From NCBI GenBank assembly GCA_965211995.1, contig OZ243040.1, positions 1,555,363 through 1,619,362 on the forward strand: 64,000 bases of DNA. Direction: 5' to 3'. Shown here piece after piece: positions 12,331-58,578 of this stretch. The position numbers and the translations under genes were made by a program. The notes beneath the pieces are model-generated. The model was not told the origin of the DNA. It saw nothing but the letters and a program-made list of their open reading frames with translations, and made no database searches. Within the stretch, counting starts at the first letter, position 1. Each line of letters opens with the position of its first letter. Origin of the DNA: Candidatus Oxydemutatoraceae bacterium. GTDB taxonomy: Bacteria > Pseudomonadota > Gammaproteobacteria > Poriferisulfidales > Oxydemutatoraceae.

Positions 12331-12566
12331 CGGGGAATCGCCCTTGTGCGCCGCCTGAAAAAGCCGCCTGGATTGATCGGACGCAGGGCAATTATAGGGA
12401 AGTTAGGCAGTTTAGGGTTTTTTGATAACTTGGCTAACTTCGGTATAAACCGGCTGTTGTGGACTCCATCAGAAACCCGTATGCGCCCGGAGCAGGGGTT
12501 GCTCCCCCGGAATTGGCTGGTCGCCGGGAAATCCTTGAAGCGATGCGAATTGCATTGGAGCGGGTT

Positions 12567-13529: not shown

Positions 13530-13556
13530 TTTCCAAGTCCCTTGGTTAAGTTGAAT

Positions 13557-14426: not shown

Positions 14427-14632
14427 TTGCCGAGCGTTTTACACTTTATGCGCGTCCCTTTAGAGGGCTGGCATCTTTCAGATGGTTTTAGACGCTCACC
14501 TCTTCTACATCTGCTGCAAACTTTAGAGGGGGGCATTTTTTAGCCCGTTTTAGAATTTCTAAAACTTCTTCATAAACCTTCTTACGTTCAGGTTGTCGTT
14601 CAAGTTGTGAGGAGGATATCTTTATACGCCGT

Positions 14633-15742: not shown

Positions 15743-15753
15743 GCAAGGTGCTC

Positions 15754-18501
15754 TCACCCCGTCCAGCCAAGTCCCGCCGCCACGCAGTTAATTGACAACA
15801 GCAGCGCGACCAGTTTTTCCTGATGGCTGCTCTCATCGGTCACGTCCATGCCGCGCAACTCGGAGATCAAGCGCACCTGTTCAAACCCGGCTTGATCCAC
15901 CATCGGCAGGCGTCTTTCGAGGCGGCGCCCGAAGCGCGGGAATCTCTCGCACAGGTGTTTTTTGCCGGTAATGCTGAGCAGCATTTCCGCGCTCAGGCGG
16001 TACTCGTCCTTGATCAGGCCGAAGATCTTGTCGCGCACGCCGGTGTCGGGCACCATCTCCGCGTAAGCGGCGGCGATATCAAGATTGACCTGCGGCAGGT
16101 TCTTTTCGACTTCGTTGGCGATCAGGCGAAACAAAGGGCAGTCCCGCAGCATCGTGCGCAGCAACGCAAGCGCGCCTTCATGTTCCGACACCAAGGTCCG
16201 CACCGCGGAACCGAAGCCGAACCAGCCGGGCACCATCATTCGGTTCTGCGACCACGCGAACACCCAGGGGATCGCGCGCAGGTCGTCGAGCGTGCCGGCG
16301 CCAAAGCGCTGTGCCGGGCGCGACCCGATCTTCAGCAGCGCCAACTCCCCGACCGGACTCGCCGCCTGATAGAACATAAGCAGTCCTTTCTGATCAGCCA
16401 ATCGGCGGTAGGCCGCGAACGAAGCGGCGGACAAGGTTTCCATCGCCGCATCGAATTCGCTGTTGCGCGTCAGCCGCCGGTCAACGCCGGACAGCAGGCT
16501 GTGTTCAAGCGCCGACGCGCACAGCATTTCCAGTTGATGCTCGGCGGTGCCCAGGTTCGCGAACTTTGCAGACACCACTTCGCCCTGTTCGGTCACCCGC
16601 ATTCTGCCGTTGACCGTGAACGGCGGCTGCGCGGCAATTGCGTCCTCGATCGGGGCGCCGCCGCGGCTGCTCGAACCGCCGCGCCCGTGGAAAAAAGACA
16701 CCGCGACGCCGTGCTCACGGCCGACGGCGTGCAGCCGTTGCTGCGCCTTGCCGGTCTCCCAGTTCGAGCAGACGAAGCCGCCGTCCTTGTTGGAGTCCGA
16801 ATACCCGACCATGATCTCCTGCACGCCGCCGAGCGAGTCAAGCGTGCGGCGCACGGCGTCCGCCGTCAGGATTTCCGCAAGAATGTCCGGCCCCTTGCGC
16901 AGATCGTTGATGGTTTCGAGCAGCGGCACCACCGCGATGCGGCACGCGCCGGCGTTGAATAATCCGGCGAACTTCGCGAGCAGATAGACGTTCAAAACGT
17001 CCGCGCCTGAGCGCGTCATGCTCAGGATGAAACTGTTGAACGCGGATTTGTCGAGACGGCCACCGACTTCGGCGACGAGACGGAAGATCTTGAAAGTCTC
17101 GACGGTTTGCCCGGACAATTCAGTGTCCGGAGGCAGGCGCGGGCAGGGCGCGTCGAGCAGTTCCGCCACCCATTTCAGATAGTCGCCGCCGGCTTGCGGC
17201 GGGCGCAGTTCCGCCTTGGCCAAAATCTCCGTCAGGGCCTGATTGATGCGGGTCGAGTTTTCCCTGAGGTCGAGGCTTGCCGTTCTGAAACCGAAGGTCC
17301 GGGCGATGCGGATCAGGCGCAAGACGTAACGGCGGGCGAGGCCGTCGGCGGCCGCGTCGTTCAGACAGCGATACATGATTTCGAGGTCGTCCAGCAATGC
17401 TTCGGCGTCGCGGTAGCCACCGTCGCTTGCGGCGGCGGTGTTTTTGATTTTGGTGATAACGCAGCGCGCGTATTGGCGGAACAACTCTCCGGGGTTGCGC
17501 TTTTCCGTCGCGTCGCGTTCTCCGGAGGCGTCGAGCAACTCGTTCAGGCGCCGCCGAAAATAGCCGGGGACATTGATCGCATGAGCGGCAATGCTCAAAT
17601 GCCTGAGCAGCCCCCTCATTTCCGTTTCCAGGTTGGCGAGGCTGGTCGCACGGTACGTGAACAAAGCCTTGCGCGTGACGTCCGCGGTCACGAACGGGTT
17701 GCCGTCGCGGTCGCCGCCGATCCACGAACCGAAACGCAGCAGCGCCGCGGTTGTCGCGGGCGCCGCCTCGGGGTAATGGGCGGCGAGAGCATCGCAGAGT
17801 TGCTCGTGCACGGTGTTGACCGCTTCAAAGATGGATTCGTGAAAAAAATGGCAGCCCCACGCGATCTCGTCTTCGACCGACGGCTTCTCCAAGCGGATTT
17901 CCCCGGTCATCCACAGCAGGTCTATCTCGTCGCGCAGGCGCAGGATCAATTCGTTGCGCTCCCGCGGCGTCCAGCGCGCGAGTTCGAGTTCTTTCAGCCG
18001 CAGGTAGATGCGCCGGTGTATCTGCAAAACGGTGATGCGCTTGGCTTCGGTCGGATGCGCGGTGATGACCGGCTGTATCAGCGTATCGTTGAGCAGCGCT
18101 TGCACGGTGTCGGCGGTGAGTTCTTTTTCGCGCGCGGCGGCGAACAAACTCATGAACGTGCCATCGTTGCAATCGGCGCCGAGCGAAGTTTCAATCTCGC
18201 GGCGGCGGCGCACGGTCGCGTTCTGCTCGAGGATGTTCAGCAACTGAAACCAGATCCCGCGTGCCTGCAGCGTGTGCAGCAGGTCGAGGTCGCTGCGCGC
18301 GCGCATTTGCCTGCCGGTAAACAACTCTTCTATATGCGGCCGCCGGCGGCGGATAACGTCGAGCAGCAGTTCGTGAAACAGTTGCAGCGTGCGTTCAGCG
18401 TAGGCGATTGAACGCCGGCTGATCTCGGCACGGTCGCGCCCGCGGCGGGGTGCAACCGGTTCGAGGTAGCCGGGATGGTCGCAACGGCGGGTGGCTGTCA
18501 T
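15754..18501 (-). CDS. ppc: phosphoenolpyruvate carboxylase
   Basis: 'VITAHPTEAKR' PEPC signature, ~915 aa; alternative start at 18528 ('MSLRLSLKF'). Confidence 0.9.
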   Translation of the reverse strand: MTATRRCDHPGYLEPVAPRRGRDRAEISRRSIAYAERTLQLFHELLLDVIRRRRPHIEELFTGRQMRARSDLDLLHTLQARGIWFQLLNILEQNATVRRRREIETSLGADCNDGTFMSLFAAAREKELTADTVQALLNDTLIQPVITAHPTEAKRITVLQIHRRIYLRLKELELARWTPRERNELILRLRDEIDLLWMTGEIRLEKPSVEDEIAWGCHFFHESIFEAVNTVHEQLCDALAAHYPEAAPATTAALLRFGSWIGGDRDGNPFVTADVTRKALFTYRATSLANLETEMRGLLRHLSIAAHAINVPGYFRRRLNELLDASGERDATEKRNPGELFRQYARCVITKIKNTAAASDGGYRDAEALLDDLEIMYRCLNDAAADGLARRYVLRLIRIARTFGFRTASLDLRENSTRINQALTEILAKAELRPPQAGGDYLKWVAELLDAPCPRLPPDTELSGQTVETFKIFRLVAEVGGRLDKSAFNSFILSMTRSGADVLNVYLLAKFAGLFNAGACRIAVVPLLETINDLRKGPDILAEILTADAVRRTLDSLGGVQEIMVGYSDSNKDGGFVCSNWETGKAQQRLHAVGREHGVAVSFFHGRGGSSSRGGAPIEDAIAAQPPFTVNGRMRVTEQGEVVSAKFANLGTAEHQLEMLCASALEHSLLSGVDRRLTRNSEFDAAMETLSAASFAAYRRLADQKGLLMFYQAASPVGELALLKIGSRPAQRFGAGTLDDLRAIPWVFAWSQNRMMVPGWFGFGSAVRTLVSEHEGALALLRTMLRDCPLFRLIANEVEKNLPQVNLDIAAAYAEMVPDTGVRDKIFGLIKDEYRLSAEMLLSITGKKHLCERFPRFGRRLERRLPMVDQAGFEQVRLISELRGMDVTDESSHQEKLVALLLSINCVAAGLGWTG

Positions 18502-23437: not shown

Positions 23438-24700
23438 TCAGCCGCGGCTCTTTGCGGTGGCTTTGGGGCGCCCCGGCTTTTTGGGCGCGGGCTTTTTGAC
23501 CGCTACCTTTTTGGCCTTGGACTTTTTCGCGCCGGGCGCGGTTTCGCGGAAGTATTCCTCGGCCGCGGCGGTGCCGCTGCCGGCGGCAATCTTGAGACCC
23601 GCGTCGCGCATCGCCATTTCGGTGCCCGCGAGCGCCGCGAGGATCGAGGTCTCGTTGTTGTCTCCGAGATGCCCGATGCGGAACACCTTGCCCGCGAGTT
23701 TGGAAAGCCCCGCGCCAAGCGAGATGTTGTAGCGGTGGTAGGCGATATCAATCACCTTGCGCGCGTCGCGGCTCGGCGGCACGACAATCGCCGTGACCGT
23801 GTCCGAATACCATTTCGGCTCTTTCGCGCAGGTCTTGAGACCCCACGCCCAAATCGCGCGGCGCACGCCTTCGGCGAGGCGGTGGTGGCGCTTGAACACG
23901 CTGTTGAGGCCCTCGTCGAGCAGCAGGTCGAGCGACTTTCTCAAGCCGTACAGCAGCGGGATCGAGGGGGTGTACGGAAAGAAACCGTCCTTGTTGGTGA
24001 CGATATGGTCTTCGATGTCGAGATAGCACCGTGCGCACTTTGCTTGCTTGCGAGATTGCAACGCCCTTTTGCTGAAGCATGCGAGCGCGAGTCCCGCCGG
24101 CAGCATGAAGCCCTTTTGCGAGCCGCTGATCGCGACGTCCACTTTCCAGTCGTCCATGCGGAAGTCCACGCTCGCGATTGAACTGACGCCGTCCACGTAG
24201 AGCATCGCCGGGTGCTTGACCCGATCGAGCACTTTGCGCACGCCGCGCACGTCGCTGGCGACGCCGGTCGCGGTTTCGTTCTGGCACACCATCACGCCCT
24301 TGATCTGGTGGCGGGTGTCGGCCTTGAGGCGCTTTTGGAGTCTGTCGAGCGGAAAACCCTGCCCCCACGGCGTCTCGAAAACCTCGACGTCGAGGCCGAC
24401 GCGCTGCGCGAGATCAATCCACAGGTGGCTGAACTGCCCGAAGCGCGCGCTCAGCACTTTGTCTCCCGGCGACCGCGTGTTCACCAGCGCGACCTCCCAG
24501 CCGGCGGTGCCTGAGCCGGGGAAGATGAACGATTGCCCCGTCTCGGTTTTGAAAACCCGGTTGAGATCCCTGAACAGCGGCTTGGTCAGTTTGTGCATGT
24601 CGGGGCGACGGTGATCCTCCTGCGGAACGCGCATCGCGTTGTCAACGGCCGCCGGCAGATTGGTCGGGCCCGGCACATATAAGAAATTACGTCCTGGCAT
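23438..24700 (-). CDS. sga: serine--glyoxylate aminotransferase (class V aminotransferase)
   Basis: 'MPGRNFLYVPGPTNLP' start, PLP-lysine region 'SGSQKG'; unusual Lys/Ala/Pro-rich C-terminal tail. Confidence 0.8.
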   Translation of the reverse strand: MPGRNFLYVPGPTNLPAAVDNAMRVPQEDHRRPDMHKLTKPLFRDLNRVFKTETGQSFIFPGSGTAGWEVALVNTRSPGDKVLSARFGQFSHLWIDLAQRVGLDVEVFETPWGQGFPLDRLQKRLKADTRHQIKGVMVCQNETATGVASDVRGVRKVLDRVKHPAMLYVDGVSSIASVDFRMDDWKVDVAISGSQKGFMLPAGLALACFSKRALQSRKQAKCARCYLDIEDHIVTNKDGFFPYTPSIPLLYGLRKSLDLLLDEGLNSVFKRHHRLAEGVRRAIWAWGLKTCAKEPKWYSDTVTAIVVPPSRDARKVIDIAYHRYNISLGAGLSKLAGKVFRIGHLGDNNETSILAALAGTEMAMRDAGLKIAAGSGTAAAEEYFRETAPGAKKSKAKKVAVKKPAPKKPGRPKATAKSRG

Positions 24701-25252
24701 GGTTGTTGTCCTGAAGTTCGGTTGAGTGGGCAATGGATTTCGCCGGGAAAAACCGGGCGAAGCCGGCAATTATGCCGCAAACAGCGGCTGTTTCTCAAGC
24801 GGGCGTAAGTCCGATGCAAGTCAGAAGCGTATGCCCTGCTCCGGGGCATGGCTCCCCGGGACGGGGATCAAGACGGCGCTTGCTGCCGCCCGCGGCAAAG
24901 GGATGCCATGACGCGGGAGGCTGGAACCGTGTTCGGCGGGGGGTTGACCGGCTAAGGCTGAGTGAGGCGGGGCAAAGTCGGGGCACCTCAGACCAACTGA
25001 AGCAACGGCTGCAACAGGGTGCGTGGGTGCCATTGACTGACACCTTTACCGGTGCGCGGCGTACCCGTTTGACCGCTAGAGGGAAATGGAGCGTTGCAAC
25101 GGGGTTAAGGGGGATTCCCTCGCGCCAAGAGGAAAGCGGTTTGTGACGTTCGGCAATGCCGGCATCGCCAAACGCTGAAACAGCGCCGTTCCATCCGTGG
25201 AGATATCAAGTCGGAATCTATGCGGACTTTTTTTTGCAAGTCGGTTTTTCTT

Positions 25253-25455
25253 CTACAGACCGAGGAGGCTAAAAGGAATTGGCTGTTGGCGCCTGGGTTT
25301 GGGGGGTTCGCGCGGGGGATTAGTGTCAATGCCGCCGGCTTCAAGTTCCGCCTGCTTTTGTTGCCACTCGTGAAATCCGCGCAAGTTCATTTGCGGGTTT
25401 TGGGCGGCAATTTCCTCCATGGTCAGTATTTTGGGAGGTGTTGGCTTGTTCATAA
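25253..25455 (-). CDS. small hypothetical protein (~66 aa)
   Basis: ORF 5 bp downstream of the membrane-protein gene; no recognisable motif. Confidence 0.25.
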
Positions 25456-25587
25456 GAGACTCCTGGTATGGACAGTGGACAGCCACTCTTGGATAAGCGA
25501 CCTGGACAATTCCGCCGCCAATTCTATCTGATGACGTGCGCTTGGGGGGTATTGATGCGGATGGACAACTGAGAACATACATACCTC

Positions 25588-26253
25588 CTACCGTCGGCGT
25601 ATGTAATAACCGCTATCACTGTCAAGGGGAATTTCATCCCCTTCCTGAGCATGATCGCTTTCCAAGTGCTTCCATGAAAGCCACAAGACCATAACAGTGG
25701 CCACTAGTATAGATCCTACTATCCACCACCTGTATGGGACACATCCAGGGTCAAAACACATCAGGCTGAAAACAAGCAACACCGACCAAATAACCGTGCT
25801 CAAAAGACTTACAGCAATACCAATTTTAGAAACAGAAAAGGGGGACGCTGAAAGAAGCGAATTTGATCCAGTATATTCGTGGATAGATGTCTTATATAAT
25901 TTGCCTGTAATTTCATCCTCTAAAAAGTCAATATTTTTCTCCCAAATCTCTTGCCAATACCGACTACCCTTATTAGCCAACCACCACCAAAAAGAAAGGA
26001 TCAGTCCAACAGAACTCAGAGCAACAGAGGCTACCCATAGGACCAAACCGTTTTGAGACTTTACCAAACCAGCATAAGCGACAAACGCAAGTGCAATAAA
26101 AACCCAAAAATAAGCCGACCTTTTCCAAAAAAGATCTATTTCAAACCGACGTATTTCATGTGCGTATTTAAGTGCTCTTGCCTGCATACGCTCTCTCTGG
26201 GGGTTATCCCCAAAAGCCTCGCGCAGGTACTTTTGTCTGGCAGTTTCATTCAT
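25588..26253 (-). CDS. hypothetical 4-TM membrane protein, coupled to the res gene
   Basis: 221 aa, two hydrophobic helix pairs; starts 15 bp after the res stop; low GC. Confidence 0.5.
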   Translation of the reverse strand: MNETARQKYLREAFGDNPQRERMQARALKYAHEIRRFEIDLFWKRSAYFWVFIALAFVAYAGLVKSQNGLVLWVASVALSSVGLILSFWWWLANKGSRYWQEIWEKNIDFLEDEITGKLYKTSIHEYTGSNSLLSASPFSVSKIGIAVSLLSTVIWSVLLVFSLMCFDPGCVPYRWWIVGSILVATVMVLWLSWKHLESDHAQEGDEIPLDSDSGYYIRRR

Positions 26254-26268
26254 GCGGTAAAGACCCGG

Positions 26269-28950
26269 TTATTTATAATTGGTGAAACCCTCCACCAACT
26301 CTTTAAATGATTGTGGATTATATTCGTAGAACCCTTTCTCATCCACATAAACAAAGTCATAAATAACTTCTGATTGTATTCGATTAATATCTTCACACCA
26401 TTGTTTCAACCTTTTCATTTTCAAATCCACGTCCATATCTTTTAGCCCTTTAGTTTCCACAATAAAAATCTCAGAGGGGGATTTTTTGACCAGGAAATCA
26501 GGGTAATAATTAGAAATATTCCCGTCGGCGTTCACGTAATCTATCTTGAAATGGGAAGTGGCATTTTTTGCATAGGAAATAATGTCCGCACATTCCTCTA
26601 AAAACCCCGCAAACTTCAACTCAAGGTGGCTATCCCCCACAATCTTATTGAAAACACTCTTTTTAGGAATCAAATACTCTTGCTGCTTAACGACACAGGG
26701 GCGTGTTTTACGCAACTTGATCGCATCCCGTATTTCCGCATTGCCCCGGTCTTGCACCGTTAATTCGTTGATCCTTTTTTTGAAAGTATCAATTAATGTC
26801 TTGCAGGCAACCAGTTCCGACAGATTACGCAAAGTGTTGGGATTCTCCAATTCGATTTCCTTGCCAAATAAATGAAACCTTATAAACTCTTTTACTTTTC
26901 CATAAAGCACATCATACCCGCTGAATAAACGCAGATCTTTCATGATTGTCTTTGTAAAATACCCAATGACACTGCTGTAATTAGGGACACCGGAAATATC
27001 CAGTTTCGTGATATGTGTAATTTCTCCTGTTGTGATGTCTTTAAAAACAATTTCCCGCTGCTGTTCCTTTACAAACTGACGATAAGGCGCTTTCTCACAA
27101 CCAAAAGTGCCAACATCAAGATCGTCAAGGTTCTTATACTCACGATAGATTCTAGCGGTCAGAACCGGGATCTCGATATCCAGTGCATCCATATCTTTGT
27201 TTTTGTTGTCATGGTCAATTTCAATAATGAGCGGCGTTTTTGCACTAGTGCCCTCTCCCATCGCTGCGCGTTCCAGTTCAACCCCCTCAGTTTGAATGGA
27301 CTCCACAAATTCCATAAAGGCGTCAGTCCCAACCACACTGACTTGTTCTTCCGCATCCTCATCCGGATACATCCTGCGCAAACCGCGGCCTAAGGTTTGT
27401 TCCGGCAAAATGTTGCTCTGAGCGGTATATGGCCTCAAGCCCACAATCGTCGTCACATTACGTACATCCCAACCTTCCTTAAGCACCAGCACTGAAACAA
27501 TAGCCTTATACGAGTTATCTGCACTATCAATAGCATTCGCTTGCTTTCTCAACTTTTCCAATTCGTCTTTGTTTCTACTGCTGTCTGCCTCAGAAATCTC
27601 CCCATTCTTTTTAGTGTGAATAACCAGTACGGCATCTTTCAGATCAGGGTAGGTGCTTTCTAGATATTCGGCAACGCTATCGCAATTCTTTGTGTCATCC
27701 GTCATTACAAACAAAATCGCTTTTTTATCTAGTTTCTTGTGTTCCTCATAAGTTTTTCTCCATTCAACCACCCCCAGATGCAAATAATCAGAATACTTTT
27801 CAGTATATTTAATGCTTTGCTTCTCTCTGAGTTTAGCCCTGCTGGCAGAATCGGGAAGCACGGGATGTTTAACCACATTTTGAGAAATTGCTTCGACCAA
27901 CGGGTAGTCTGAAACAGTTTGCACGAAAATCGCCCCATTATTGTGCTTGGGTGTCGCGGTGGTATCTACCTGCAAAGATAACTCGCTGCCTTTCTGCAGC
28001 AAATGATTGTGAATGTCTTCAATGCACTTAAACCAAGCGAGACTACTATCGTGTATGTGATGCGCCTCATCGTTCAAAACCACTAACTCATCTATGTCAC
28101 GAACGATAACCCCTAAATCTATCTTGGAATCCGTAGTCGCACCTGTCGGTTTTTTGCCTAGAAAATAGCCCCTCGTATCGTCATCGTCAGCCGATGGAAG
28201 AGCATCGTCGCCGGCATATATGCGATGGATATTAGTCAGAAAGACATTGCCAGCAGGACGAGTAACACGCACTTCATCCTGTATGTGCACGGTCAAGTTA
28301 AAGTCATCGTTCCAATTCCGGCCGCCCACTCCATCATCAGGCAATATCGGATCTTCCCTGAAAATTTTCGAGTCTACAAAATCCTTACGCAGTCTGTCCA
28401 AAACTATAATGTTGGGAGCAATCACAAGAAAGTTGCGGGCAAGTTCTGATTCATCCTCGTAAATCTTATGGAAATAACTCCAAGCCAAGACCAGGCTCAT
28501 AACTTTAGTTTTTCCCGTTCCTGTCGCCATCTTGACGACAAAGCGTTTCCAACTCTCATCGAACATGTTTGCGGAAACAGCGCCGGATTTGTCAAATCGA
28601 AGCATGTCGTACTTGTCTTTTATACGTGCCACGTCGTATAAATAAATGATCGTCTCAATGGCTTCCCTCTGGGCAAAGTAATACTGGAACTCCGTTGCCG
28701 TTCCATCATTTGTATTAGAAATTAAGTGCGGGGTGTTGAACCACCAATTCAAAAGGCTGCGGCTTGTCTCAGTAGCCCCCTTGTACCCGCTATCACGCCA
28801 CTTCTTAACTTGTCTCCTTAACTCCGGGACCAGCGGTGGCAACAACTTCTCAAAACTCGTCTCGCGTAACGTTTCATCTGCCGGGAGCCAGCGAACATCA
28901 GGCTCCAAAATTGCATGAGGAGAATCTGGAAAATCAGGATGGAGTGCCAT
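26269..28950 (-). CDS. res: type III restriction enzyme Res subunit (SF2 helicase plus C-terminal PD-(D/E)xK nuclease)
   Basis: Walker A 'ATGTGKT', 'LNDEAHH' DEAH box, C-terminal 'YYPDFLV...IVETKG' nuclease motif; 893 aa; low GC. Confidence 0.85.
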   Translation of the reverse strand: MALHPDFPDSPHAILEPDVRWLPADETLRETSFEKLLPPLVPELRRQVKKWRDSGYKGATETSRSLLNWWFNTPHLISNTNDGTATEFQYYFAQREAIETIIYLYDVARIKDKYDMLRFDKSGAVSANMFDESWKRFVVKMATGTGKTKVMSLVLAWSYFHKIYEDESELARNFLVIAPNIIVLDRLRKDFVDSKIFREDPILPDDGVGGRNWNDDFNLTVHIQDEVRVTRPAGNVFLTNIHRIYAGDDALPSADDDDTRGYFLGKKPTGATTDSKIDLGVIVRDIDELVVLNDEAHHIHDSSLAWFKCIEDIHNHLLQKGSELSLQVDTTATPKHNNGAIFVQTVSDYPLVEAISQNVVKHPVLPDSASRAKLREKQSIKYTEKYSDYLHLGVVEWRKTYEEHKKLDKKAILFVMTDDTKNCDSVAEYLESTYPDLKDAVLVIHTKKNGEISEADSSRNKDELEKLRKQANAIDSADNSYKAIVSVLVLKEGWDVRNVTTIVGLRPYTAQSNILPEQTLGRGLRRMYPDEDAEEQVSVVGTDAFMEFVESIQTEGVELERAAMGEGTSAKTPLIIEIDHDNKNKDMDALDIEIPVLTARIYREYKNLDDLDVGTFGCEKAPYRQFVKEQQREIVFKDITTGEITHITKLDISGVPNYSSVIGYFTKTIMKDLRLFSGYDVLYGKVKEFIRFHLFGKEIELENPNTLRNLSELVACKTLIDTFKKRINELTVQDRGNAEIRDAIKLRKTRPCVVKQQEYLIPKKSVFNKIVGDSHLELKFAGFLEECADIISYAKNATSHFKIDYVNADGNISNYYPDFLVKKSPSEIFIVETKGLKDMDVDLKMKRLKQWCEDINRIQSEVIYDFVYVDEKGFYEYNPQSFKELVEGFTNYK

Positions 28951-28965
28951 AATTATTGGGGGAAT

Positions 28966-30240
28966 TTATTCTTTCGGGTTTGGGTCTTTTTTGTCCGCAG
29001 TACTATTTTCTGTGACGTTATCTATAGCGCTTTTCATAAAATCCACTTCATCATGCCTTTTTCTCAGTGGATCTTGAAGGATTTGATTCAAAATCCCGCG
29101 CACGTAGTAACTTTTGTCTTTTGATTCTATCTTTTCCATAAATGCCATTAATGATTTTGCCAGCACTGCTTTATAAGAGTAGTCTTCAGCCAAGTTTTTA
29201 TTTTTGACATATCTGCCCGCACAAAACCAAGCACCCGCTATTAACAAAGGAATTAGAGTCAGCCTAAGTGCGGCAGTTACTACATCTGCCCCATCATCCG
29301 TTAAAGATCCCAAGATATAGAAACCCAACCCAACTGAAAATAATGTAAAAAGTAAAGCACCCGATAACCAACCCACAAAATTATTCCACTTTCTAGCTTG
29401 ACTGTACTTTTCTTGGTAGGCCGCGCTGATTCCTGCAGCGGTCGTGTACTCAAGAGCTATCTTAGATTGCTTTATCAGTTGACTAGCCTCTTCAAGAAGT
29501 TCTTCCTGTTGTTGCTTATACTTTTCTGCCTCTTGCTCCTGAGATTCTAGTTGAGCCCGCTTTTCTTCAATTTGTTGGGAAAATTCTTCAATCACTTTGA
29601 AATGAGTTTTTGCAGAAGATAATAATTGACTTATGTCTTTATTACTATCAGAAGACCTCTCGTGAATACCCGTTAATTCATCAGATTTCTGATTGAGACC
29701 ATTAAGTTTTTCTGAAAAAGAGGCAAAATTCTCCTCCGCTTGTTGTATTTTACTCTGTGCCTGTTCGGCATTTTCTTGGATGCTTTTGACTTTCTTAATA
29801 TCTTCTTCAAGTGCAGAACTCTTTGAGTGTAATTCATTGAGACGTTCTTCAATAGCCTTTTGAGATTCTGATGATCCTCTGATTCTATAACTTCGAATGA
29901 TAATTTTTAATTCATCCAACTGGTTGGCAACATTTGGGTAGTTTTTTTGATTTAACAAATTATTTATCCTATTTAAGCAAATCTGTATGTTAAGTCTTTC
30001 CTGATAGACAGACAGTTGTATAAACTTGTTATGCGCTTTCGTGATACCTCTCAAGTCCGTAATAATAGCTTGCAGCCCCGCTTTAAGGGACTGTGGGGTG
30101 TATTCCCCTTCCTGCCCATAAACACTTTTCCCATGCTCTCTCGGAGCAAAAGTTGAGAGATGTTTTTCCAACATGTCTAATTGACCACGTACGTTTTTTA
30201 TTGATTCTGTTTCCATGATTTCACACTGTAATTTGCACAA
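28966..30240 (-). CDS. coiled-coil protein with two C-terminal TM helices, inserted between mod and res
   Basis: ~290 aa of heptad-rich Q/E/K/L sequence, then TM helices 'WLSGALLFTLFSVGLGFYILGSL' and 'LTLIPLLIAGAWFCAG'; its start overlaps the mod stop. Confidence 0.55.
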   Translation of the reverse strand: MCKLQCEIMETESIKNVRGQLDMLEKHLSTFAPREHGKSVYGQEGEYTPQSLKAGLQAIITDLRGITKAHNKFIQLSVYQERLNIQICLNRINNLLNQKNYPNVANQLDELKIIIRSYRIRGSSESQKAIEERLNELHSKSSALEEDIKKVKSIQENAEQAQSKIQQAEENFASFSEKLNGLNQKSDELTGIHERSSDSNKDISQLLSSAKTHFKVIEEFSQQIEEKRAQLESQEQEAEKYKQQQEELLEEASQLIKQSKIALEYTTAAGISAAYQEKYSQARKWNNFVGWLSGALLFTLFSVGLGFYILGSLTDDGADVVTAALRLTLIPLLIAGAWFCAGRYVKNKNLAEDYSYKAVLAKSLMAFMEKIESKDKSYYVRGILNQILQDPLRKRHDEVDFMKSAIDNVTENSTADKKDPNPKE

Positions 30241-32458
30241 TTTTCATAGTGTCATTGCCAAATATATCCACTACTTTAACGGCTATCTTCCGTCGCCCGG
30301 GTTTACATTCCTTAAATATACTAGTGAGTTCTAATGAGCGATCTTTCTTTGTCCGAAATGATTGCCACTCGTTTTCAAAGACATAGTCGCCGGTCCAACG
30401 CTCTTCCCACTTGTCAGTATCTTCATCTTTAACCCTAATAATCTCACGCTTACTCTCAAAATCAAAATCCACCGCCCAATAATCAATCCAATCCGCCCAT
30501 TCTTTGGTCAGCACTTCACGCTTGACGATGCCGTCTTTCGCCTTACTCACTTTAATAATCTGCCCTTGCTCCACCACGATTTTATTTTTCCCTTTCTTCA
30601 AACTAACTTCAACATTTGCAATAGAGTCCTGCGAATAGAAAACAGAAAAATCAGTCAACTCTATAGCGACACTTTTATCCTTAATGTGAGGTTTAATTTC
30701 AATATACGACACGTCGTGGAACACCACCTGATTTTTCTCCACCGCCCGCTTGTCAAAGACTTCGGCGGGGATGTATTTCATTTCCAGGTTGATGCCTTTG
30801 CCTTTTGCTTCGTCCATGATTTGCGGGAATAGGCCCATTTCAAACTCAAAGGCGAGGATGTCGGCGCGGGTGATGTGATTTTTGCGGCACTCCAGGATAA
30901 TTTCTTCCACGAACAGGCGCGTAACCGGCAGGTTGATGGGGCCGATGGCGACCATGCGTCCGGCTTTTTTGCCGTGGAACACGCCGGACTGTTCCACCGG
31001 TTGCGCGGCGTAGGCTTTGAGGATCAGGTCCTGGTATTCCTTTGATTTGGCGGCGATCTGCGCTTGCTGCTGTTCAGGTCGCAGGCCGGGATTGACGCCG
31101 ATGTAGTGCTGGCGTTCGTATTTTCCGAGGTTGAGGATTTCAAAGGCGCGGTAATTTTTGCTTTCCTTTTTGAGTGCGCGCTGTACGCCGATCATGCGCT
31201 TGCGGGTGGTGTGGATGGCGAACTTGCCGAGGTCGGAGGCGATCCATTTGCGGCTGAGTTTTTCGGCGACGGCGGCGGTGGTGCCGGAACCACAGAAGAA
31301 GTCGGCGACGAGGTCACCTTCGTTAGAGGAGGCTTTGATGATGCGTTCTAAAAGAGCTTCGGGTTTTTGGGTTGGGTATTTCAGGTATTCTCCGCCTTGT
31401 GTGGCTCTAATGTCCATCCAAACATCACGACAGCGAACTCCCTTACCCATATAAAGTTTTCGCCCTGGAACTTTCCCCTCCTCAATCAGCAACTCGCCAT
31501 TTTCAATCCACAGCAACGCAGTTTTTTTGGGCATCCCATAACCCCTTGATGGTACTTTCTCGCCATATCCTAAATCATAAACATAGCCGCCTCCGCCTGG
31601 GTTATCTACGGGGCCTACTCGATAGCGGCCTCTTTCATCGGAGTAGCGATAAAGACTTTCGCTGGCTTTGCTGTATTCCTGAAAAATGTCATTCCAGATC
31701 ACTTTTCTTTTTCCCTTACGATAAAAAAACAAAGTTTCGTGGGACTTTATAAATTTTTTGTTTTTTGCCGAACTATCCCCGATAGCTCCCTGCCAGATAG
31801 ATTCGTTCACGAAATTCTCTTTCCCAAACACCTCATCCAAAGCCAACCGCATAAAACCATTCACCCGCCAATCACAATGCACATAAATACTCCCATCCTC
31901 CGCCAGTAAATCCCGCATCAACACCAGCCGCTCATAAATCATCGCAATAAACGAATCCGCGCCCTTGCCCCAGGTGTCGCGGTAGGCCAGTTCCTCCAGC
32001 ACGTTCGGCTTTTTGGTGAAGGTGTCGCCGCCGATTTCAATATCCATGGAAAAATCCGCGCCCACGTCAAACGGCGGATCAATGTAAATCAGTTTCAACC
32101 CGCCCTGCGCTTCAATCTCCTCGCGCAACGGCCCGTTCTTGAGGCCGGACAGGATCAACTTGTTGTCGCCCCAGATCAGTTTGTTGCTCCAGCCCTTGAG
32201 TTGCCGCCCACGCGCATCGGTGGTGAACAGATCCGCCTGTAGCGATGTATCCTCCGACTTCTCCGCGCGCGGTTCGTCCACCTGCTCAATCACCTGAAAC
32301 GGCAGCACCACGTTGCACACCTCGCTGGTCTTGCCGTTCCACACCAGTTCCACTTCCCGCTTGTCGTCAAACAACAGGAAGCGGTACTTGTCGGGCAGCG
32401 GCTTGCCGGACTCAATGAGTTTGACGACGTCGCGCTTTTCGTTGTCGGAGAGGTTCAT
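30221..32458 (-). CDS. mod: type III restriction-modification Mod subunit (N6-adenine DNA methyltransferase, beta class)
   Basis: 'IYIDPPFDVG' (motif IV) lies N-terminal to 'FFCGSGTTAAVAEKL' (motif I); start 'MNLSDNEKRD'; long low-GC C-terminal extension. Confidence 0.85.
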   Translation of the reverse strand: MNLSDNEKRDVVKLIESGKPLPDKYRFLLFDDKREVELVWNGKTSEVCNVVLPFQVIEQVDEPRAEKSEDTSLQADLFTTDARGRQLKGWSNKLIWGDNKLILSGLKNGPLREEIEAQGGLKLIYIDPPFDVGADFSMDIEIGGDTFTKKPNVLEELAYRDTWGKGADSFIAMIYERLVLMRDLLAEDGSIYVHCDWRVNGFMRLALDEVFGKENFVNESIWQGAIGDSSAKNKKFIKSHETLFFYRKGKRKVIWNDIFQEYSKASESLYRYSDERGRYRVGPVDNPGGGGYVYDLGYGEKVPSRGYGMPKKTALLWIENGELLIEEGKVPGRKLYMGKGVRCRDVWMDIRATQGGEYLKYPTQKPEALLERIIKASSNEGDLVADFFCGSGTTAAVAEKLSRKWIASDLGKFAIHTTRKRMIGVQRALKKESKNYRAFEILNLGKYERQHYIGVNPGLRPEQQQAQIAAKSKEYQDLILKAYAAQPVEQSGVFHGKKAGRMVAIGPINLPVTRLFVEEIILECRKNHITRADILAFEFEMGLFPQIMDEAKGKGINLEMKYIPAEVFDKRAVEKNQVVFHDVSYIEIKPHIKDKSVAIELTDFSVFYSQDSIANVEVSLKKGKNKIVVEQGQIIKVSKAKDGIVKREVLTKEWADWIDYWAVDFDFESKREIIRVKDEDTDKWEERWTGDYVFENEWQSFRTKKDRSLELTSIFKECKPGRRKIAVKVVDIFGNDTMKIVQITV

Positions 32459-33861
32459 GGGGAGAGGTCCGGTGCGGCGTGGCGGCCAGCAAGATAACAA
32501 TACACGCTGGCGGGAAAGTAGGCCATCTTTTGATTTTCCATGTCAACGTGCCCAAACTTGGTTCGTGTTGTGAAATAACAATCTTCCATCCCGGGATGTT
32601 TTTTGAAAAACGTCTGCAAAGACCCTCGCTTTTGCCGTTGTTCAATACCTCCGTCAGACCATTTAACTTCCAAACACCAGAAAGGATGCCCACGTTCGTC
32701 AAGGGCCACGATATCCACTTCGCCGCCTTGCCAGCGTGCGTAGTGAAATTCGTATTGGAAATGAAACAACTGAGCAAATACTGCGGTCTCTACCAATGCC
32801 CCGCTTGGTCCTTCATCCTCCGGCGGGCCAAAAAGGGCGTGGTGGATTGAGGGATTGGTGAGATACACCTTGAAGAAATTGGCGCGCTTGAACCGCCTGG
32901 CATTTTGGTCTATGCGGCGAACAGTTTTGATAAGAAATGCGGCCTCCAGATATTCCAGATAACGTTTGAGCGTGGGCTTGGACACACCGGATCTCTGCGA
33001 GAGTCCGTCCAGTGATACTTCCTGTGCGGTATTCCAGGCGAGAGCCACGAACAGAGAATTGAGTTCCTGGATGTCTTGTATGCCGTAGAGACTCGGCAGG
33101 TCGCGCAGCAACACCTTGTCAATGATGTCGCTACGGACATAACGACTCATGTCCTGCTGTATGGTTTCGGAAAAAATGATTTCCGGGTAGCCGCCGATTT
33201 TGATGTAACGGATGAAGTGATCGTTGAGTTCTTTGATATTAGCATCATTCCAATTCTCTGTCTCATCTTCCCGTGCAAACGGCACGTTGATTTCCTGTAA
33301 ATCCAGATACTCGTAGAAGGTCAGCGGCGGCAGGAAAAAATCGGTGAAGCGCCCGGCGCCGGATTCAATGCTCTTGAGTCGCAACGCCGCCGCCGCCGAA
33401 CCGGACACCACGCATTTTATGTTTGGATGCGAATCCACAAACACTTTCAGGTGGCGTTCCCAATCCCGCAGGTACTGGATTTCGTCGAGGAAGAGAAAAG
33501 CGGGCGTTGCTTTTTTTAATCCGCCGGCCTCGTGAACCCGGGCGGCAAGTTCTTCGATGGACAGATTGGAATAGAGGGGCTGGTCCAGCGACAGGTAGGC
33601 CACGGCCCGGGCGGGGGTGCCTTTGTCCAGAAGTTTCTGGATGATGTGTTGTAGCAACACAGTTTTGCCGACGCGGCGCGGCCCCATCAGCACCACGGCA
33701 CGGCGCACGTCTTCGGTTTCCACCAGTTCGGCAAAGGCCCGGATGCAGGCGCGGGGGCGCATTTTCCGATGCACTTCATCGGTCTGGTGCGATGCCGTGC
33801 TCCACCAGGGATTTTCAACGCGCATGCGCTCCAGGAGCTGCGCTTCGGGGATGGTGTCCAT
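32455..33861 (-). CDS. AAA-family ATPase with C-terminal DUF4143 (PD-(D/E)xK-like) domain
   Basis: Walker A 'GPRRVGKT', Walker B 'LFLDEIQ', C-terminal 'EVDIVALDERG...CLEVKW'; 4-bp overlap with the mod start. Confidence 0.8.
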   Translation of the reverse strand: MDTIPEAQLLERMRVENPWWSTASHQTDEVHRKMRPRACIRAFAELVETEDVRRAVVLMGPRRVGKTVLLQHIIQKLLDKGTPARAVAYLSLDQPLYSNLSIEELAARVHEAGGLKKATPAFLFLDEIQYLRDWERHLKVFVDSHPNIKCVVSGSAAAALRLKSIESGAGRFTDFFLPPLTFYEYLDLQEINVPFAREDETENWNDANIKELNDHFIRYIKIGGYPEIIFSETIQQDMSRYVRSDIIDKVLLRDLPSLYGIQDIQELNSLFVALAWNTAQEVSLDGLSQRSGVSKPTLKRYLEYLEAAFLIKTVRRIDQNARRFKRANFFKVYLTNPSIHHALFGPPEDEGPSGALVETAVFAQLFHFQYEFHYARWQGGEVDIVALDERGHPFWCLEVKWSDGGIEQRQKRGSLQTFFKKHPGMEDCYFTTRTKFGHVDMENQKMAYFPASVYCYLAGRHAAPDLSP

Positions 33862-34304
33862 TATGACTGTATTGTAGCGACGGCGAGGCCGAAATTCAAT
33901 ATAAGAGAAGTTGACTTATCTTATAGGGGTTTTCTGTCGTTTTAATTTATTAATCATAGATTTATATCCGTACGAAAATTGGGATGGCAGGAATCTGGAA
34001 ACATCCGGCGTTTTATCTCATGGATGCGGCTTTTGGGGTGCTTTGTCTCATATTTTCAGTTTTATGAGACAATTTAGGGGGTTTGTGTTATCTATGAGGC
34101 ATTAATCTAGGATTACGATCAACTCCGAAAAACAGCACAATGCCGTCCTGCCACCCCTTCCCGGCATTATTTTCTGAATAATTCCCCCTTTTCAAGGAGA
34201 TTCAGCAGTCGCGCCGCACTGGGACGCGGGACAACAGCCCTGTCCCGAAAATCAACGCCGGTGAACCACGGTTCGGAAAAAATGAAATTGGTAATCTGTG
34301 TGCT

Positions 34305-34531
34305 CGCATTCGTAGGCGATGTGTTGTCTGATTTTGTCAAAGATCTGGTTCATGGATTGGCGGCTAATGCCGACGATTTAAGCGACTTTGCAGGCTTCGA
34401 TATCGAGGCAAAACAGGCGCAGGATTTGGCGGAATTTCGCCCCGGAAATTCGTGAACGGATGATATACTTTTTTTCATTTATATAACAATGTGTTATGCG
34501 CATTTTAGTATACCTTAAGTTGTCTTGAACC
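34305..34531 (-). mobile_element. IS1595-family remnant (left end only: terminal inverted repeat plus ~60 codons of the transposase N-terminus)
   Basis: ~85% identical to 55540-55763, including the inverted repeat 'ttaagttgtcttgaacc' and the 'MKNKY...' start region. Confidence 0.6.
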
Positions 34532-34578: not shown

Positions 34579-34860
34579 ATGGATGAGCAGGGGGGAATTC
34601 GATGTTTGCCTATCGAAAAGGCCGAAGAAATAATCCGTGCTTATGCGGCGTACAAAAATCGAGATTCTCTTGAATTGAGTTATTCAGAACACGCGTTGGA
34701 GCGCGCAAAAGAAAGAGGTATTTCTAATTCTGATGTCTTCTATATCCTTGCTCATGGCTTCATAAATGAGGAACCACAGGAATCAAGCAGACTAGGATAT
34801 TGCAAGTACAAATATGCAGTAAATCGCCTAACTCAGGCAACCGAGAAATATGTGCGGTAG
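34579..34860 (+). CDS. DUF4258-like small toxin candidate
   Basis: 'SEHALERAKERGISNSDVFYILAHG' resembles the DUF4258 core; 93 aa; followed by an HTH gene. Confidence 0.45.
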   Translation: MDEQGGIRCLPIEKAEEIIRAYAAYKNRDSLELSYSEHALERAKERGISNSDVFYILAHGFINEEPQESSRLGYCKYKYAVNRLTQATEKYVR

Positions 34861-34923
34861 TGATTCCTGATCCCCGTAAGCCAGCCATCAAAATCGTTAC
34901 ACTCATGTGGAAGGATTTATAAA

Positions 34924-35379
34924 ATGACTCCCGAAATAGTACGCCATCACTACACCGAGTGTGGGTTGCCTAATGTATGGATTCAAGGTCTGCGCATGGA
35001 AGACGACGCCGGGGAAAAAGTGATCAGAATCCCGAATATAGGAAGCCTGCATAAGTTGATCTCAAAGACGATCGTAACCTCAAAAGGCACGCTGACCGGG
35101 CCGGAGTTGCGCTACCTGCGCACCGAGATGGGATTGACTCAAACGCAACTGGGCGAGTTGGTTCATCGCGAGCGCCTGACCGTCTCGCGCTGGGAGCGCG
35201 GGGAAACCACTTTGGAGGGCGCCACCGAGGCGTATATCCGCATACTGGCGTCCAGCAAACTGGGGCTGGAACAGGTCGATCCGGCAGAACTCAGCTGCTG
35301 GTGCAGGTTGACGCCCGACAGTAAAAAACCAATCCACATAGACGCAACGGATCCTGAAAACTACCGCCTCGCCGCTTGA
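34924..35379 (+). CDS. XRE-family HTH protein (antitoxin candidate)
   Basis: 'LTGPELRYLRTEMGLTQTQLGELVHRERLTVSRWERGE' helix-turn-helix. Confidence 0.6.
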   Translation: MTPEIVRHHYTECGLPNVWIQGLRMEDDAGEKVIRIPNIGSLHKLISKTIVTSKGTLTGPELRYLRTEMGLTQTQLGELVHRERLTVSRWERGETTLEGATEAYIRILASSKLGLEQVDPAELSCWCRLTPDSKKPIHIDATDPENYRLAA

Positions 35380-35449: not shown

Positions 35450-35680
35450 TCAGTCGGCTTTTGCCTTAGAGAGATTCTCTTTTTCCCACTGACGGGCGAT
35501 TTTTAGAGTGGTCCGTTCACCCACCTGCACGATGTGTCCCTTGCCCCATCCCCGCTTGCTCTTATGCTCCATCTCGCGCCGGTCTATGTCATGGGTAATG
35601 CCCACGTGGACAATTCTGTTGCCTTTCTTGAAATAGTACCTATAGGCGGTTCTATACGTCGGCATCGTTCTCATCCTCAA
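35450..35680 (-). CDS. small GIY-YIG-like protein, copy 1
   Basis: 'YRYYFKKGNRIVHVGIT.DIDRREMEH' matches the GIY-(x10)-YIG...R..EH pattern. Confidence 0.5.
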   Translation of the reverse strand: MRMRTMPTYRTAYRYYFKKGNRIVHVGITHDIDRREMEHKSKRGWGKGHIVQVGERTTLKIARQWEKENLSKAKAD

Positions 35681-35827
35681 AAGAGTTAATCAATGAGCGA
35701 GTAACACTCGCCCGCTAATTTAAGACGGACACTAAAAATTATCCACTTTGCGACACAATCGCAGTTTATGCGGGACACCTGCGGCAGGTTGTTCCACCGG
35801 AATAAGCCGTAACTGTTCTAGCCCCCG

Positions 35828-36058
35828 CTAGTCGGGGTGTGCCTTAGAGAGATTCTCTTTTTTCCACTGACGAGCGATTTTTAGAGTGGTCCGTTCACCC
35901 ACCTGCACGATGTGCCCCTTGCTGCAACCTGGCTGATTCTTATGCTCATATTCGCACTGGTCTATGTCATCAGTGATGCCCACGTGGACAACCTTGTTGC
36001 CTTTCTTAAAATAGTACCTATAGGCGGTTCTATACGTTGGCATCGTTCTCATCCTCAA
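35828..36058 (-). CDS. small GIY-YIG-like protein, copy 2
   Basis: 85% identical to copy 1. Confidence 0.5.
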   Translation of the reverse strand: MRMRTMPTYRTAYRYYFKKGNKVVHVGITDDIDQCEYEHKNQPGCSKGHIVQVGERTTLKIARQWKKENLSKAHPD

Positions 36059-36584
36059 AAGAGTTAATCAAAGCATCCGCTATCCGCACAAACTCAACCA
36101 TGTCAAGATGTGCACGGGTTTTCTTACCGTCGTATTCACCCCTTATGGTCATTCTGCCATTATATGCCAACTTAATCTTTATCTTAGATTCCCGCTCTCC
36201 CGGCTTAATCTTTATCTTAGGTTTCCGCAGCGGAACCTTAAAAGGCCAAATTTCTTTAGCATGAATCGCGGTATTACAAGCCCGCCTGAATAACAGCGAT
36301 TCTTTTTCTCCGCCTGGAAAATCGGCCCAGTATTCTCCGCAGTCTTGTCTGCCGATGTCTCTTCGATCCTGCAGATCCAACAAACTGCGCGATGCCGCCG
36401 ACACCCACAGCATCAGCCTTCTTACTTCGTTTTCGTATAGAGTTTGCGTCCAATCAACCACGTTTTTTACTTTAGCCACTTCTTTATCGGCTAACAGCAG
36501 ACTCATCAAAAAGTACAAGTCCCTGCGTAAAACCAGCATGTCAACGATGGGAACATCTATTACCGTACCAGACTTATCCTGCAT
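36030..36584 (-). CDS. hypothetical protein (184 aa), low GC
   Basis: ATG at 36584; only this low-GC portion of the 357-aa ORF is plausible; the upstream extension is antisense to folD. Confidence 0.4.
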   Translation of the reverse strand: MQDKSGTVIDVPIVDMLVLRRDLYFLMSLLLADKEVAKVKNVVDWTQTLYENEVRRLMLWVSAASRSLLDLQDRRDIGRQDCGEYWADFPGGEKESLLFRRACNTAIHAKEIWPFKVPLRKPKIKIKPGERESKIKIKLAYNGRMTIRGEYDGKKTRAHLDMVEFVRIADALINSFEDENDANV

Positions 36585-36631
36585 TTTAATTATGTGAATG
36601 ACTTCCGCCCAAGCACCCCCCCCACCGCCGG

Positions 36632-37507
36632 TCAGTCTTTCACCACTCCCTGCATTCTCGCCGCCGTCAGCGTGTTTTCGAGCAGGCAGGCGACGGTGAC
36701 CGGGCCGGTGCCGCCCGGCATCGGCGTGATGCAGCCCGCGACCGCCGACACTTCCTCGAACGCCACGTCGCCGCGTATTCCCTCCGGCGTGTGCGTGACG
36801 CCGACGTCGAGCACCGCGGCGCCGGGTTTGACGCAGTCGGCGGTGATCAGCCCGGGCGCGCCGGTGGCGGCGACCAGAATATCGGCCGTGCGGCAGGTCT
36901 CGCTCAGCGCCGGCGTGCGCGAGTGGCACAGCGTAGGCGTTACATCCAACCCCTTGCGCGCCATCAACAACACCTGCGGCAGTCCGACCAGGTACGAGCG
37001 TCCGACAATGACCGCACGCCGGCCCGAGGTCGGGATCTCGTAGTGTTCGAGTATGCGCATCACGCCGAGCGGCGTGCACGGCACGAGTCCGGGTTCGCCG
37101 CACACCAGCGCGCCGAGGTTGGCGCGGGTCAGTCCGTCCACGTCTTTCGCCGTCGGCAGAAGTTCTATCGCGGCGCGGGTATCAAGCCCCTCGGGCAGCG
37201 GCAGTTGCAGCAGGATGCCCTGCACCGCCGCGTCGTTCGCAAGTTCGGTGAGTTTTTGCCCGAGTTGCGCCTGGGTGGTGCCGGCCGGCATTTCGACCAG
37301 CAGCGGGTTGAGTCCGGCGGCGGCGGCGCGCTTGAGTTTCAGGTTGACGTAGAGTTTGCCCGGCGCGTTTTCGCCGACCAGCACGGTCGCGAGCGTGATC
37401 GGCGGGCTGCCCGCCTGCTCGATCTGCGCGGCGACGCGCGCCTGGATCGCGTCGGCGACCGCCTTGCCGTCAAGGATCTGCGCGCCCTGCGAGGCCGGAG
37501 CCGTCAT
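36632..37507 (-). CDS. folD: bifunctional methylenetetrahydrofolate dehydrogenase/cyclohydrolase
   Basis: 291 aa, classic FolD sequence ('ILDGKAVA...', 'VGRS..VG.P'). Confidence 0.9.
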   Translation of the reverse strand: MTAPASQGAQILDGKAVADAIQARVAAQIEQAGSPPITLATVLVGENAPGKLYVNLKLKRAAAAGLNPLLVEMPAGTTQAQLGQKLTELANDAAVQGILLQLPLPEGLDTRAAIELLPTAKDVDGLTRANLGALVCGEPGLVPCTPLGVMRILEHYEIPTSGRRAVIVGRSYLVGLPQVLLMARKGLDVTPTLCHSRTPALSETCRTADILVAATGAPGLITADCVKPGAAVLDVGVTHTPEGIRGDVAFEEVSAVAGCITPMPGGTGPVTVACLLENTLTAARMQGVVKD

Positions 37508-54937: not shown

Positions 54938-55029
54938 GTGGTTACCTCTTGTTTATTTGGCAACGTTGCCGCTCAAATACTCCAAAGTCTCTTTCACTCT
55001 GTTCACCGCTATGCCGAACAATTTGATCT

Positions 55030-55763: not shown

Positions 55764-55832
55764 TAAATTAATTCATAGGCAGAAATAAAATTCACTAGTA
55801 TCATTGCAATTATTATCAAACGAGTAACCAAA

Positions 55833-57842: not shown

Positions 57843-57844
57843 TC

Positions 57845-58537: not shown

Positions 58538-58578
58538 ATCCTGCAAATTCGAGATATTAATATTGGCCTGCCAGGCTC

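Follow-up and report, generated by a model that had tools for sequence, protein, structure and literature searches.

A type III restriction-modification gene block with three accessory genes in a Candidatus Oxydemutatoraceae bacterium, and its possible role as a carrier of exchangeable defence modules

Canonical type III restriction-modification (RM) systems, of the EcoP15I/EcoP1I type, are composed of mod and res, the first encoding a beta-class N6-adenine methyltransferase (Mod) and the second a superfamily 2 (SF2) helicase with a C-terminal PD-(D/E)xK nuclease (Res). Cleavage by such systems is ATP-dependent and requires two unmethylated sites in inverse orientation, and Mod hemimethylates the DNA. 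RM operons are also known to house further defence genes: prrC lies inside EcoprrI, a type IC locus, and becomes active once restriction is inhibited (PMC12707154), a review treats RM systems that are coupled to accessory genes presumed to encode toxins (PMC12707154), and PARIS (AriA/AriB) has been described as an RM guardian (PMC12707154). Here, we describe a type III counterpart in a stretch of 64,000 nucleotides (the window) from Candidatus Oxydemutatoraceae bacterium (assembly GCA_965211995.1, contig OZ243040.1, positions 1,555,363 to 1,619,362 of the forward strand). Five closely spaced genes, all on the minus strand at 33861-25588, encode a DUF4143 ATPase, Mod, a coiled-coil protein with two transmembrane (TM) segments (hereafter CC), Res, and a protein with four TM segments. 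With moderate confidence, we favour the view that the operon of this RM lineage serves to carry interchangeable modules of second-line defence, three separable ones of which would be present here, and not that the five proteins form an obligate machine.

The core pair conforms to the type III pattern. Mod (745 aa; 32458..30221, minus strand), which the recorded gene call gives in the same 745-aa form, matches the N6_N4_Mtase family of Pfam (E 5.4e-42) and the MTase_III model of PADLOC (E 6.6e-116), and its motifs stand in the beta-class order, with DPPF (residue 127) ahead of FCGSG (388). Res (893 aa; 28950..26269, minus strand) contains the Pfam domains ResIII (E 1.4e-14) and RE_endonuc (E 1.8e-4), the SF2 helicase motifs GTGKT (residue 144) and DEAH (residue 294), and, for the C-terminal nuclease, the motif PD...ExK (residue 817). 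Since the domains are intact and the catalytic motifs are kept, the two proteins look functional, and the pair is apparently intact as far as its sequence tells. An earlier note on this DNA, made from the sequence alone, had proposed a type III mod-res pair with extra genes in a block of uniform orientation, and these domains and motifs bear this out. The pair departs from the canonical arrangement in that mod, although it precedes res on the same strand, is split from it by a 1.25-kb gene, that of the 416-aa membrane protein CC. Furthermore, the best match of Res is to the BPTD_3080 restriction endonuclease of NCBIfam (E 2e-80; 271 bits, below the cutoff of 800), whereas its match to the REase_III model of PADLOC is modest (E 2.8e-22); Res thus apparently belongs to a BPTD_3080-related lineage.

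Related loci (labelled L001, L004, L007 and so forth) were assigned to the same Mod/Res lineage by 52-80% identity to the window proteins: Mod is 58-71% identical to its counterparts in L012, L014, L004, and L007, and Res 52-80% identical to those of L001, L012, L014, and L007. In L012, from a gammaproteobacterial metagenome-assembled genome (MAG), the order Mod-CC-Res is found again (70%, 39%, and 69% identity, respectively), with a 4-bp overlap between Mod and CC. The same 4-bp overlap joins Mod to CC in L004, where Res has been lost beside insertion sequence (IS) elements, while L001 possesses CC and Res (58% and 80%) and has IS fragments in place of Mod. A different order is seen in L014: a homologue of the DUF4143 ATPase (76%) is located immediately before Mod (71%), Res lies downstream, and CC lies a few genes upstream and not between Mod and Res. 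The nearest homologues of the four-TM protein stand beside the RM lineage in L007 and L008, on the opposite strand. The three accessory genes of the window occur together in no other locus examined. The expectation that the accessory genes would be conserved with mod-res elsewhere is therefore upheld in part, by the complete Mod-CC-Res order of L012, the partial ones of L001 and L004, and the altered one of L014, and fails for the accessory genes as a trio. The linkage of Mod, CC, and Res would accordingly seem to be partly conserved and no one-off, but the accessory positions shift. CC is also far less similar than its neighbours (39-40% identity, against 64-71% for Mod/Res in the same loci), which suggests either separate histories or a much faster evolution of CC.

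The sister loci carry other genes in these positions. In L007, an AAA_15 ATPase and a 141-aa protein separate Mod from Res (13490-15246), and L012 has an AAA_15 ATPase and a 139-aa protein after Res (14179-15939). The two pairs are homologous (49% and 45% identity; the small protein has no family match), and their different placement, between Mod and Res in one locus and after Res in the other, is direct evidence of cargo moving around within the RM lineage. In L014, the interval between Mod and Res is filled by a 517-aa ATPase, which matches AriAB of PARIS (E 1e-35, PADLOC), together with a HepT ribonuclease. L008 (1-8322, minus strand), whose Mod is of a related RM type, carries downstream of Mod an NsnB/AriA-like ATPase, a 176-aa protein, Multi_ubiq, Prok-E2_E, and ThiF, and a Res-like open reading frame (ORF), interrupted by the contig end, lies beyond this ubiquitin-like module. 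Taken together, the ATPases of the sister loci match NsnB (Menshen), PDC-M55A, HEC-03B, and AriA in PADLOC. Cargo is thus found before mod, between mod and res, and after res, and, on the strength of these family matches, the slot holds recognised or candidate abortive-type modules. In the sister loci, relatives of the PARIS, Menshen (NsnB), and AbiL-type ABC ATPase modules stand where the window has its accessory proteins (between Mod and Res in L007 and L014, downstream of Mod in L008, and after Res in L012); the accessory proteins of the window themselves match none of these models. In two metagenome contigs, L001 and L007, the RM islands of this lineage lie directly upstream of tuf-secE-nusG-rplK, suggesting that insertion in that host group favours this place in the chromosome.

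The protein encoded between Mod and Res, CC (416 aa; 30216..28966, minus strand), belongs to an unnamed family. Its homologue alignment, hydrophobic segments, and predicted structure (predicted local distance difference test, pLDDT, 79) delineate a conserved N-terminal helical bundle (residues 1-108), a long helix (116-274), a TM hairpin (281-306 and 311-334), and a C-terminal segment. The long helix varies in length and sequence between homologues, and the best-conserved part of the alignment is the juxtamembrane C-terminal segment, GAWFCAxQYVKxKNxxEDYxYKxVLAKS...DPLRKRHD. With a TM hairpin and no signal peptide, both large parts should face the cytoplasm. Searches of Pfam, NCBIfam, PADLOC, and PHROGs returned no family beyond coiled-coil noise, the PDB held no specific solved relative, and no ATPase or nuclease family was matched; the alignment yielded only sub-threshold, holin-like noise, and no SLATT model appeared among the reported Pfam matches (all those of the window proteins and, for each alignment, its 25 commonest families). 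Nevertheless, a word-indexed search collected 51 clusters, and a profile search of 1.84 billion representatives retrieved 298 at E<=1e-30. CC therefore is a real, though unnamed, protein family of about 300 clusters.

To place this family in its genomic context, species-representative genomes were scanned, which gave 80 loci, mostly from Bacteroidota and Gammaproteobacteria, with some from Nitrospirales, Gracilibacteria, and sponge-symbiont MAGs. RM neighbours were called with local profiles, and the fractions that follow depend on what those profiles recognise. An RM gene lies directly upstream of CC in 23 of 76 loci, directly downstream in 3 of 74, and at least six genes away at 7 of 403 positions; within three genes of CC, one is present in 30 of 81 loci. 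The Pfam families of the 76 genes directly upstream comprise Methylase_S (HsdS; 12), N6_N4_Mtase (5), ResIII (4, two of them with Type_ISP_C), MmeI (2), and Mrr_cat_2 (2), and two genes upstream HsdM, YhcG/DUF1016, and Fic are encountered. No recurrent partner was found among the Pfam matches of the 74 genes directly downstream. The usual layout is hsdM-hsdS-CC-(Schlafen/YhcG/Fic)-hsdR, in which Fic, YhcG/DUF1016, and Schlafen/AlbA_2 co-occur with CC as cargo of the RM slot. CC has also been found away from recognised RM genes, within an integrative and conjugative element (L005) and after GmrSD (L003). These neighbourhoods show the CC family as a tenant of RM operons in general, with a preference for the position immediately behind the gene that bears the target-recognition domain (TRD), whether the system is of type I, III, IIL, or ISP; the family is not specific to type III.

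The closest parallel to the position of CC is accordingly the type I locus with cargo between hsdS and hsdR, as exemplified by Fic/DOC, YhcG/DUF1016, and Schlafen/AlbA_2. CC fills the same slot after hsdS in 12-13 loci, often in the company of those cargo genes, and the window presents the type III equivalent, mod-X-res. Unlike those cargo families, CC has no model in the libraries searched, and two more accessory genes flank the operon of the window. A distant relative of the C-terminal half of CC (28% identity over residues 247-385) was observed on a Vibrio plasmid (L093; NZ_CP046164.1, 6281-7669), where it adjoins a filamentous-prophage region with Zot and DUF2523 genes, with a DarT gene about 3 kb away. 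In PHROGs, none of the three accessory proteins has a phage homologue.

The first gene of the block encodes an ATPase of 468 aa (33861..32455, minus strand) with the Pfam domains AAA_14 (E 1.5e-30; 106 bits, cutoff 27) and DUF4143 (E 3.8e-25; 89 bits, cutoff 28), a Walker A motif, GPRRVGKT, at residue 60, and a Walker B motif, FLFLDE, at 122. DUF4143 is counted among the domains of the PD-(D/E)XK superfamily (PMC3424549). The protein matches over most of its length the PADLOC candidate PDC-S01 (PDLC04787, E 2.5e-58), an AAA_14-DUF4143 protein of the COG1373 type, both domains of which it carries. PDC-S01 is listed as a single-gene candidate, whereas the ATPase gene of the window overlaps the start of mod, and the pairing of ATPase with Mod recurs in L014.

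The last gene of the block encodes the four-TM protein (221 aa; 26253..25588, minus strand), with hydrophobic segments at residues 46-66, 68-92, 141-169, and 174-195. It is a member of the Pfam family 8xMP (PF24838; E 5.1e-34, 117.4 bits where the cutoff is 30, with positions 2-135 of the 136-position profile aligned), as are all 52 of its aligned relatives. Its monomer was modelled with a pLDDT of 81 and a predicted template modelling score (pTM) of 0.76, and it has no relative in the PDB either by sequence or by fold. Relatives of 8xMP make up more than 915 clusters, some of which are named 'RipA family octameric membrane protein' by NCBI/UniRef. We considered the RipA of Streptococcus pneumoniae, a Rosmer toxin acting on DnaN, as the namesake and did not equate the two, the text of that paper being without the word 'membrane'; the other literature matches for the name were RIPA-buffer noise and mycobacterial RipA. 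In addition to the homologues beside the RM lineage in L007 and L008, a near homologue comes after an Mrr-like gene (L009), and 8xMP relatives also follow Mrr-like and BstA_C genes or stand by themselves in accessory regions of plasmids, one of them near pifC on an IncF plasmid. The linkage of 8xMP to restriction genes (Res, Mrr-like) thus comes from four contexts and is not an established property of the family. The novelty attributed to the whole arrangement has to be narrowed accordingly: the ATPase falls under PDC-S01 and the four-TM protein under 8xMP, both already catalogued, and CC is the one without a family model.

The two membrane proteins may share more than their location. A profile-profile alignment (hhalign) of the region of CC comprising TM1, TM2, and the helix that follows them with 8xMP gave a score of 37.2 and a probability of 43%, compared to 25.3 for a reversed profile and a maximum of 34.5 among 20 block-shuffled profiles. 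The aligned motifs are AWFCAxQYVKxKNxxEDYxYK in CC and SFxWxLxNRGSKYWQENWExHVDLLEDExxGPLYK in 8xMP. On this marginal profile score, a common origin of the C-terminal module of CC and 8xMP is unproven.

The genes of the block follow one another closely. The ATPase and Mod genes overlap by 4 bp (ATGA), Mod and CC are separated by a 4-nt gap if CC is counted from the ATG at 30216, and the CC/Res and Res/four-TM junctions are of 15 nt each. Junctions were derived from ORF coordinates, those of Mod/CC and CC/Res being also checked on the sequence. These coordinates confirm the order ATPase-Mod-CC-Res-four-TM and its tight packing on the minus strand, as first noted, along with the 4-bp and 15-nt junctions at ATPase/Mod and CC/Res. 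The 20-bp overlap of Mod and CC given in the earlier note needs an upstream TTG start at 30240, whereas the N-termini of homologues and the recorded gene call favour ATG 30216; the 15-nt gap between Res and the four-TM gene was missing there. Since each of the five ORFs has conserved homologues elsewhere, all are, on sequence conservation, genuine genes and not chance ORFs, and the accessory ones are no pseudogene remnants. The island proteins that were checked are singletons at 90% identity.

How might such an operon work? The accessory genes would share one transcription unit with Mod and Res, and probably its regulation too. Mod and Res would provide the first line, a methylation-based restriction, and the two membrane proteins would serve as back-up effectors in the manner of prrC in EcoprrI. 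In CC, the N-terminal bundle and the stalk, both predicted to be cytoplasmic, could report on the recognition/methylase module and be kept inactive while that module works; were restriction blocked or overrun, the TM hairpin and C-terminal segment would compromise the membrane and the infection would be aborted. A guardian or abortive role is the one that we infer and favour for CC, and the suggestion, made at the outset, of a membrane effector or an abortive-infection arm is a reasonable one.

The analogy with EcoprrI-PrrC and RloC is that a non-RM gene is housed in an RM operon, alongside the genes for modification/specificity, and that a latent suicide effector is the model, released once restriction is inhibited. 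It does not extend to the proteins: PrrC is a soluble ABC-ATPase anticodon nuclease, whereas CC is a predicted membrane protein with no enzymatic domain and with no relation to PrrC in sequence or domains. Of the features that characterise PrrC/RloC, CC has the position in an RM operon and lacks the ABC-ATPase N-terminal domain and the anticodon-nuclease C-terminal domain. The carrier, too, is of type III here and not of type IC, and an activation of CC by inhibition of RM would be assumed by analogy.

Several observations weigh against this interpretation. About 60% of the CC loci have no RM gene recognised by the local profiles within three genes, so that the CC family may work without an RM partner. 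A literature search for 8xMP/RipA found no paper that defines the function of the family or lies behind its name. Finally, the tight coupling of the genes and the recurrent 4-bp overlap of Mod and CC in L004 and L012 would fit a functional partnership equally well. Such a partnership, in which the five genes form one integrated system, type III restriction is mechanistically coupled to a membrane effector arm, and the ATPase and the membrane proteins serve this one RM enzyme as its own subunits or regulators, is what the earlier note had in mind when it spoke of one composite system. The junctions do resemble those of translationally coupled genes, and the reading gains from the order Mod-CC-Res in L012, the adjacency of ATPase and Mod in L014, and the nearest 8xMP homologues beside the same RM lineage. 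It is at odds with the absence of the trio from every other locus examined, the interchangeable cargo of the slot, the location of CC outside the mod-res pair in L014 and of 8xMP on the opposite strand in L007 and L008, the association of the CC family with HsdS, MmeI-type, and Type ISP genes or with no RM gene at all, and the low identity of CC relative to Mod and Res in the same loci. The composite system as proposed is thus not sustained and, because its parts shuffle, we regard an integrated machine as unlikely, and as less likely than a carrier with separable modules.

The main alternative to a guardian role, to which we assign a similarly low likelihood, is that CC, and perhaps 8xMP also, is a non-lethal tether, by the long stalk of which the RM recognition module would be anchored at the inner membrane and would meet phage DNA where it is injected. 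This would suit a protein with two large, predictedly cytoplasmic domains around a TM hairpin and a stalk of variable length, encoded right after a TRD-bearing gene (HsdS, Mod, MmeI, or Type ISP), and defence at the membrane is workable in view of a described nuclease that is membrane-bound and cleaves phage DNA as it is injected (PMC13190303). However, no shared interaction domain is detectable across the diverse RM partners, and many members of the CC family have no adjacent RM gene. Moreover, conservation peaks at the TM hairpin and C-terminal segment and not in the N-terminal domain, through which a partner would be bound, and for this reason an effector fits better than an adaptor. Least probable, in our opinion, is that the membrane proteins are not immune effectors and are stabilising/addiction, superinfection-exclusion, or hitch-hiking genes of mobile RM islands, in which case the finding would shrink to an ordinary defence island: both families do occur alone in plasmid or prophage accessory regions (8xMP near pifC, the CC relative by Zot/DUF2523), and a toxin-antitoxin pair and a transposase-like remnant share the island, but the bias of CC to the site after RM recognition genes (23/76 versus 7/403) is hard to square with hitch-hiking, and the same slot carries recognised defence ATPases in sister loci.

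The carrier reading may be extended further, to a proposal that we hold as speculative and rather doubtful. The CC family, perhaps sharing a TM-hairpin and 'EDx...YK' core with 8xMP/RipA, could represent a new and widespread class of membrane-acting guardians of type I, III, IIL, and ISP restriction. Such proteins would sense the state of the DNA-recognition or methylase module and, on its being disabled by a phage, bring about the collapse of the membrane; the type III operon of the window would in that case be equipped with two of them.

The gene block is situated in a low-GC island at 25.2-36.6 kb, with a GC of 0.37-0.55 compared to about 0.65 on either side. An aminotransferase-like gene (23438-24769) lies to the left of the island and folD (36632-37507) to its right. 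The borders show neither a tRNA nor flanking direct repeats. A horizontally acquired, foreign defence island containing the type III RM block is the best explanation for this setting. Upstream of the ATPase gene, an AT-rich candidate promoter region (33862..34200, minus strand) contains promoter-like hexamers at 33899-33871 and 34195-34166 in a consensus scan, the number of such sites being not above that in shuffled sequence; a promoter and terminator scan of the block likewise gave counts no better than shuffled sequence. At the other end, near the island edge, a doubtful ORF of 66 aa (25453..25253, minus strand) is a recorded gene call preceded by AGGAG. It had been taken to start 5 bp past the four-TM gene; in fact, it begins 134 nt past the stop, and it has no homologue among 90 related loci and no family match in Pfam, PADLOC, NCBIfam, or PHROGs. 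This ORF probably lies outside the five-gene unit.

Further features were observed in the island and in the window at large. Divergently from the RM block, a DUF4258-family protein (93 aa) and then an MqsA-like helix-turn-helix (HTH) protein (151 aa; NCBIfam TIGR03830, 6e-13, below cutoff) are encoded at 34579-35379 on the plus strand, and probably form a toxin-antitoxin pair. Just upstream of the operon, at 34290-34480 on the minus strand, a frame of about 60 codons with an in-frame stop, NEKKYIIRSRISGAKFRQILRLFCLDIEACKVA*IVGISRQSMNQIFDKIRQHIAYECE, presumably resembles the N-terminal HTH of ISXO2-like (IS1595-family) transposases and may be an IS remnant; a tblastn search with the IS1595 transposase of L001 gave no match to it. 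A 242-nt direct repeat is present at 35452-35693 and 35830-36071 (88% identical, 378 nt apart), each copy of which holds a 76-aa ORF on the minus strand without a family match. At the right island edge, directly downstream of folD, an orphan gene of 186 aa (36030-36590, minus strand) has no match in Pfam, PADLOC, or PHROGs, and a 25-nt near-tandem repeat within it (36171-36228) encodes a KIKIK-rich stretch. Elsewhere, low-GC stretches at 12000-15000 and 53000-59000 (GC down to 0.42) are probably other acquired islands, and one 1-kb bin, 51001-52000, has an AT skew of -0.50, far outside the rest of the window.

The arrangement described here exemplifies, for type III, the nesting of defence genes in RM operons, which is a known phenomenon. 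Accessory genes in such operons are the classic path to guardian immunity, as in the case of PrrC, and few of their families have been characterised. What is new is the CC family of two-TM proteins, with about 300 clusters, and its position after the recognition genes of four RM types, along with a type III lineage that has a reusable cargo slot for PARIS-, Menshen-, and AbiL-like ATPases, HepT, a ubiquitin-like module, and CC. The loci provide a testable set for how second-line defences are wired to restriction, and the slot between mod and res, or between hsdS and hsdR, is a cheap place in which to look for new defence genes.

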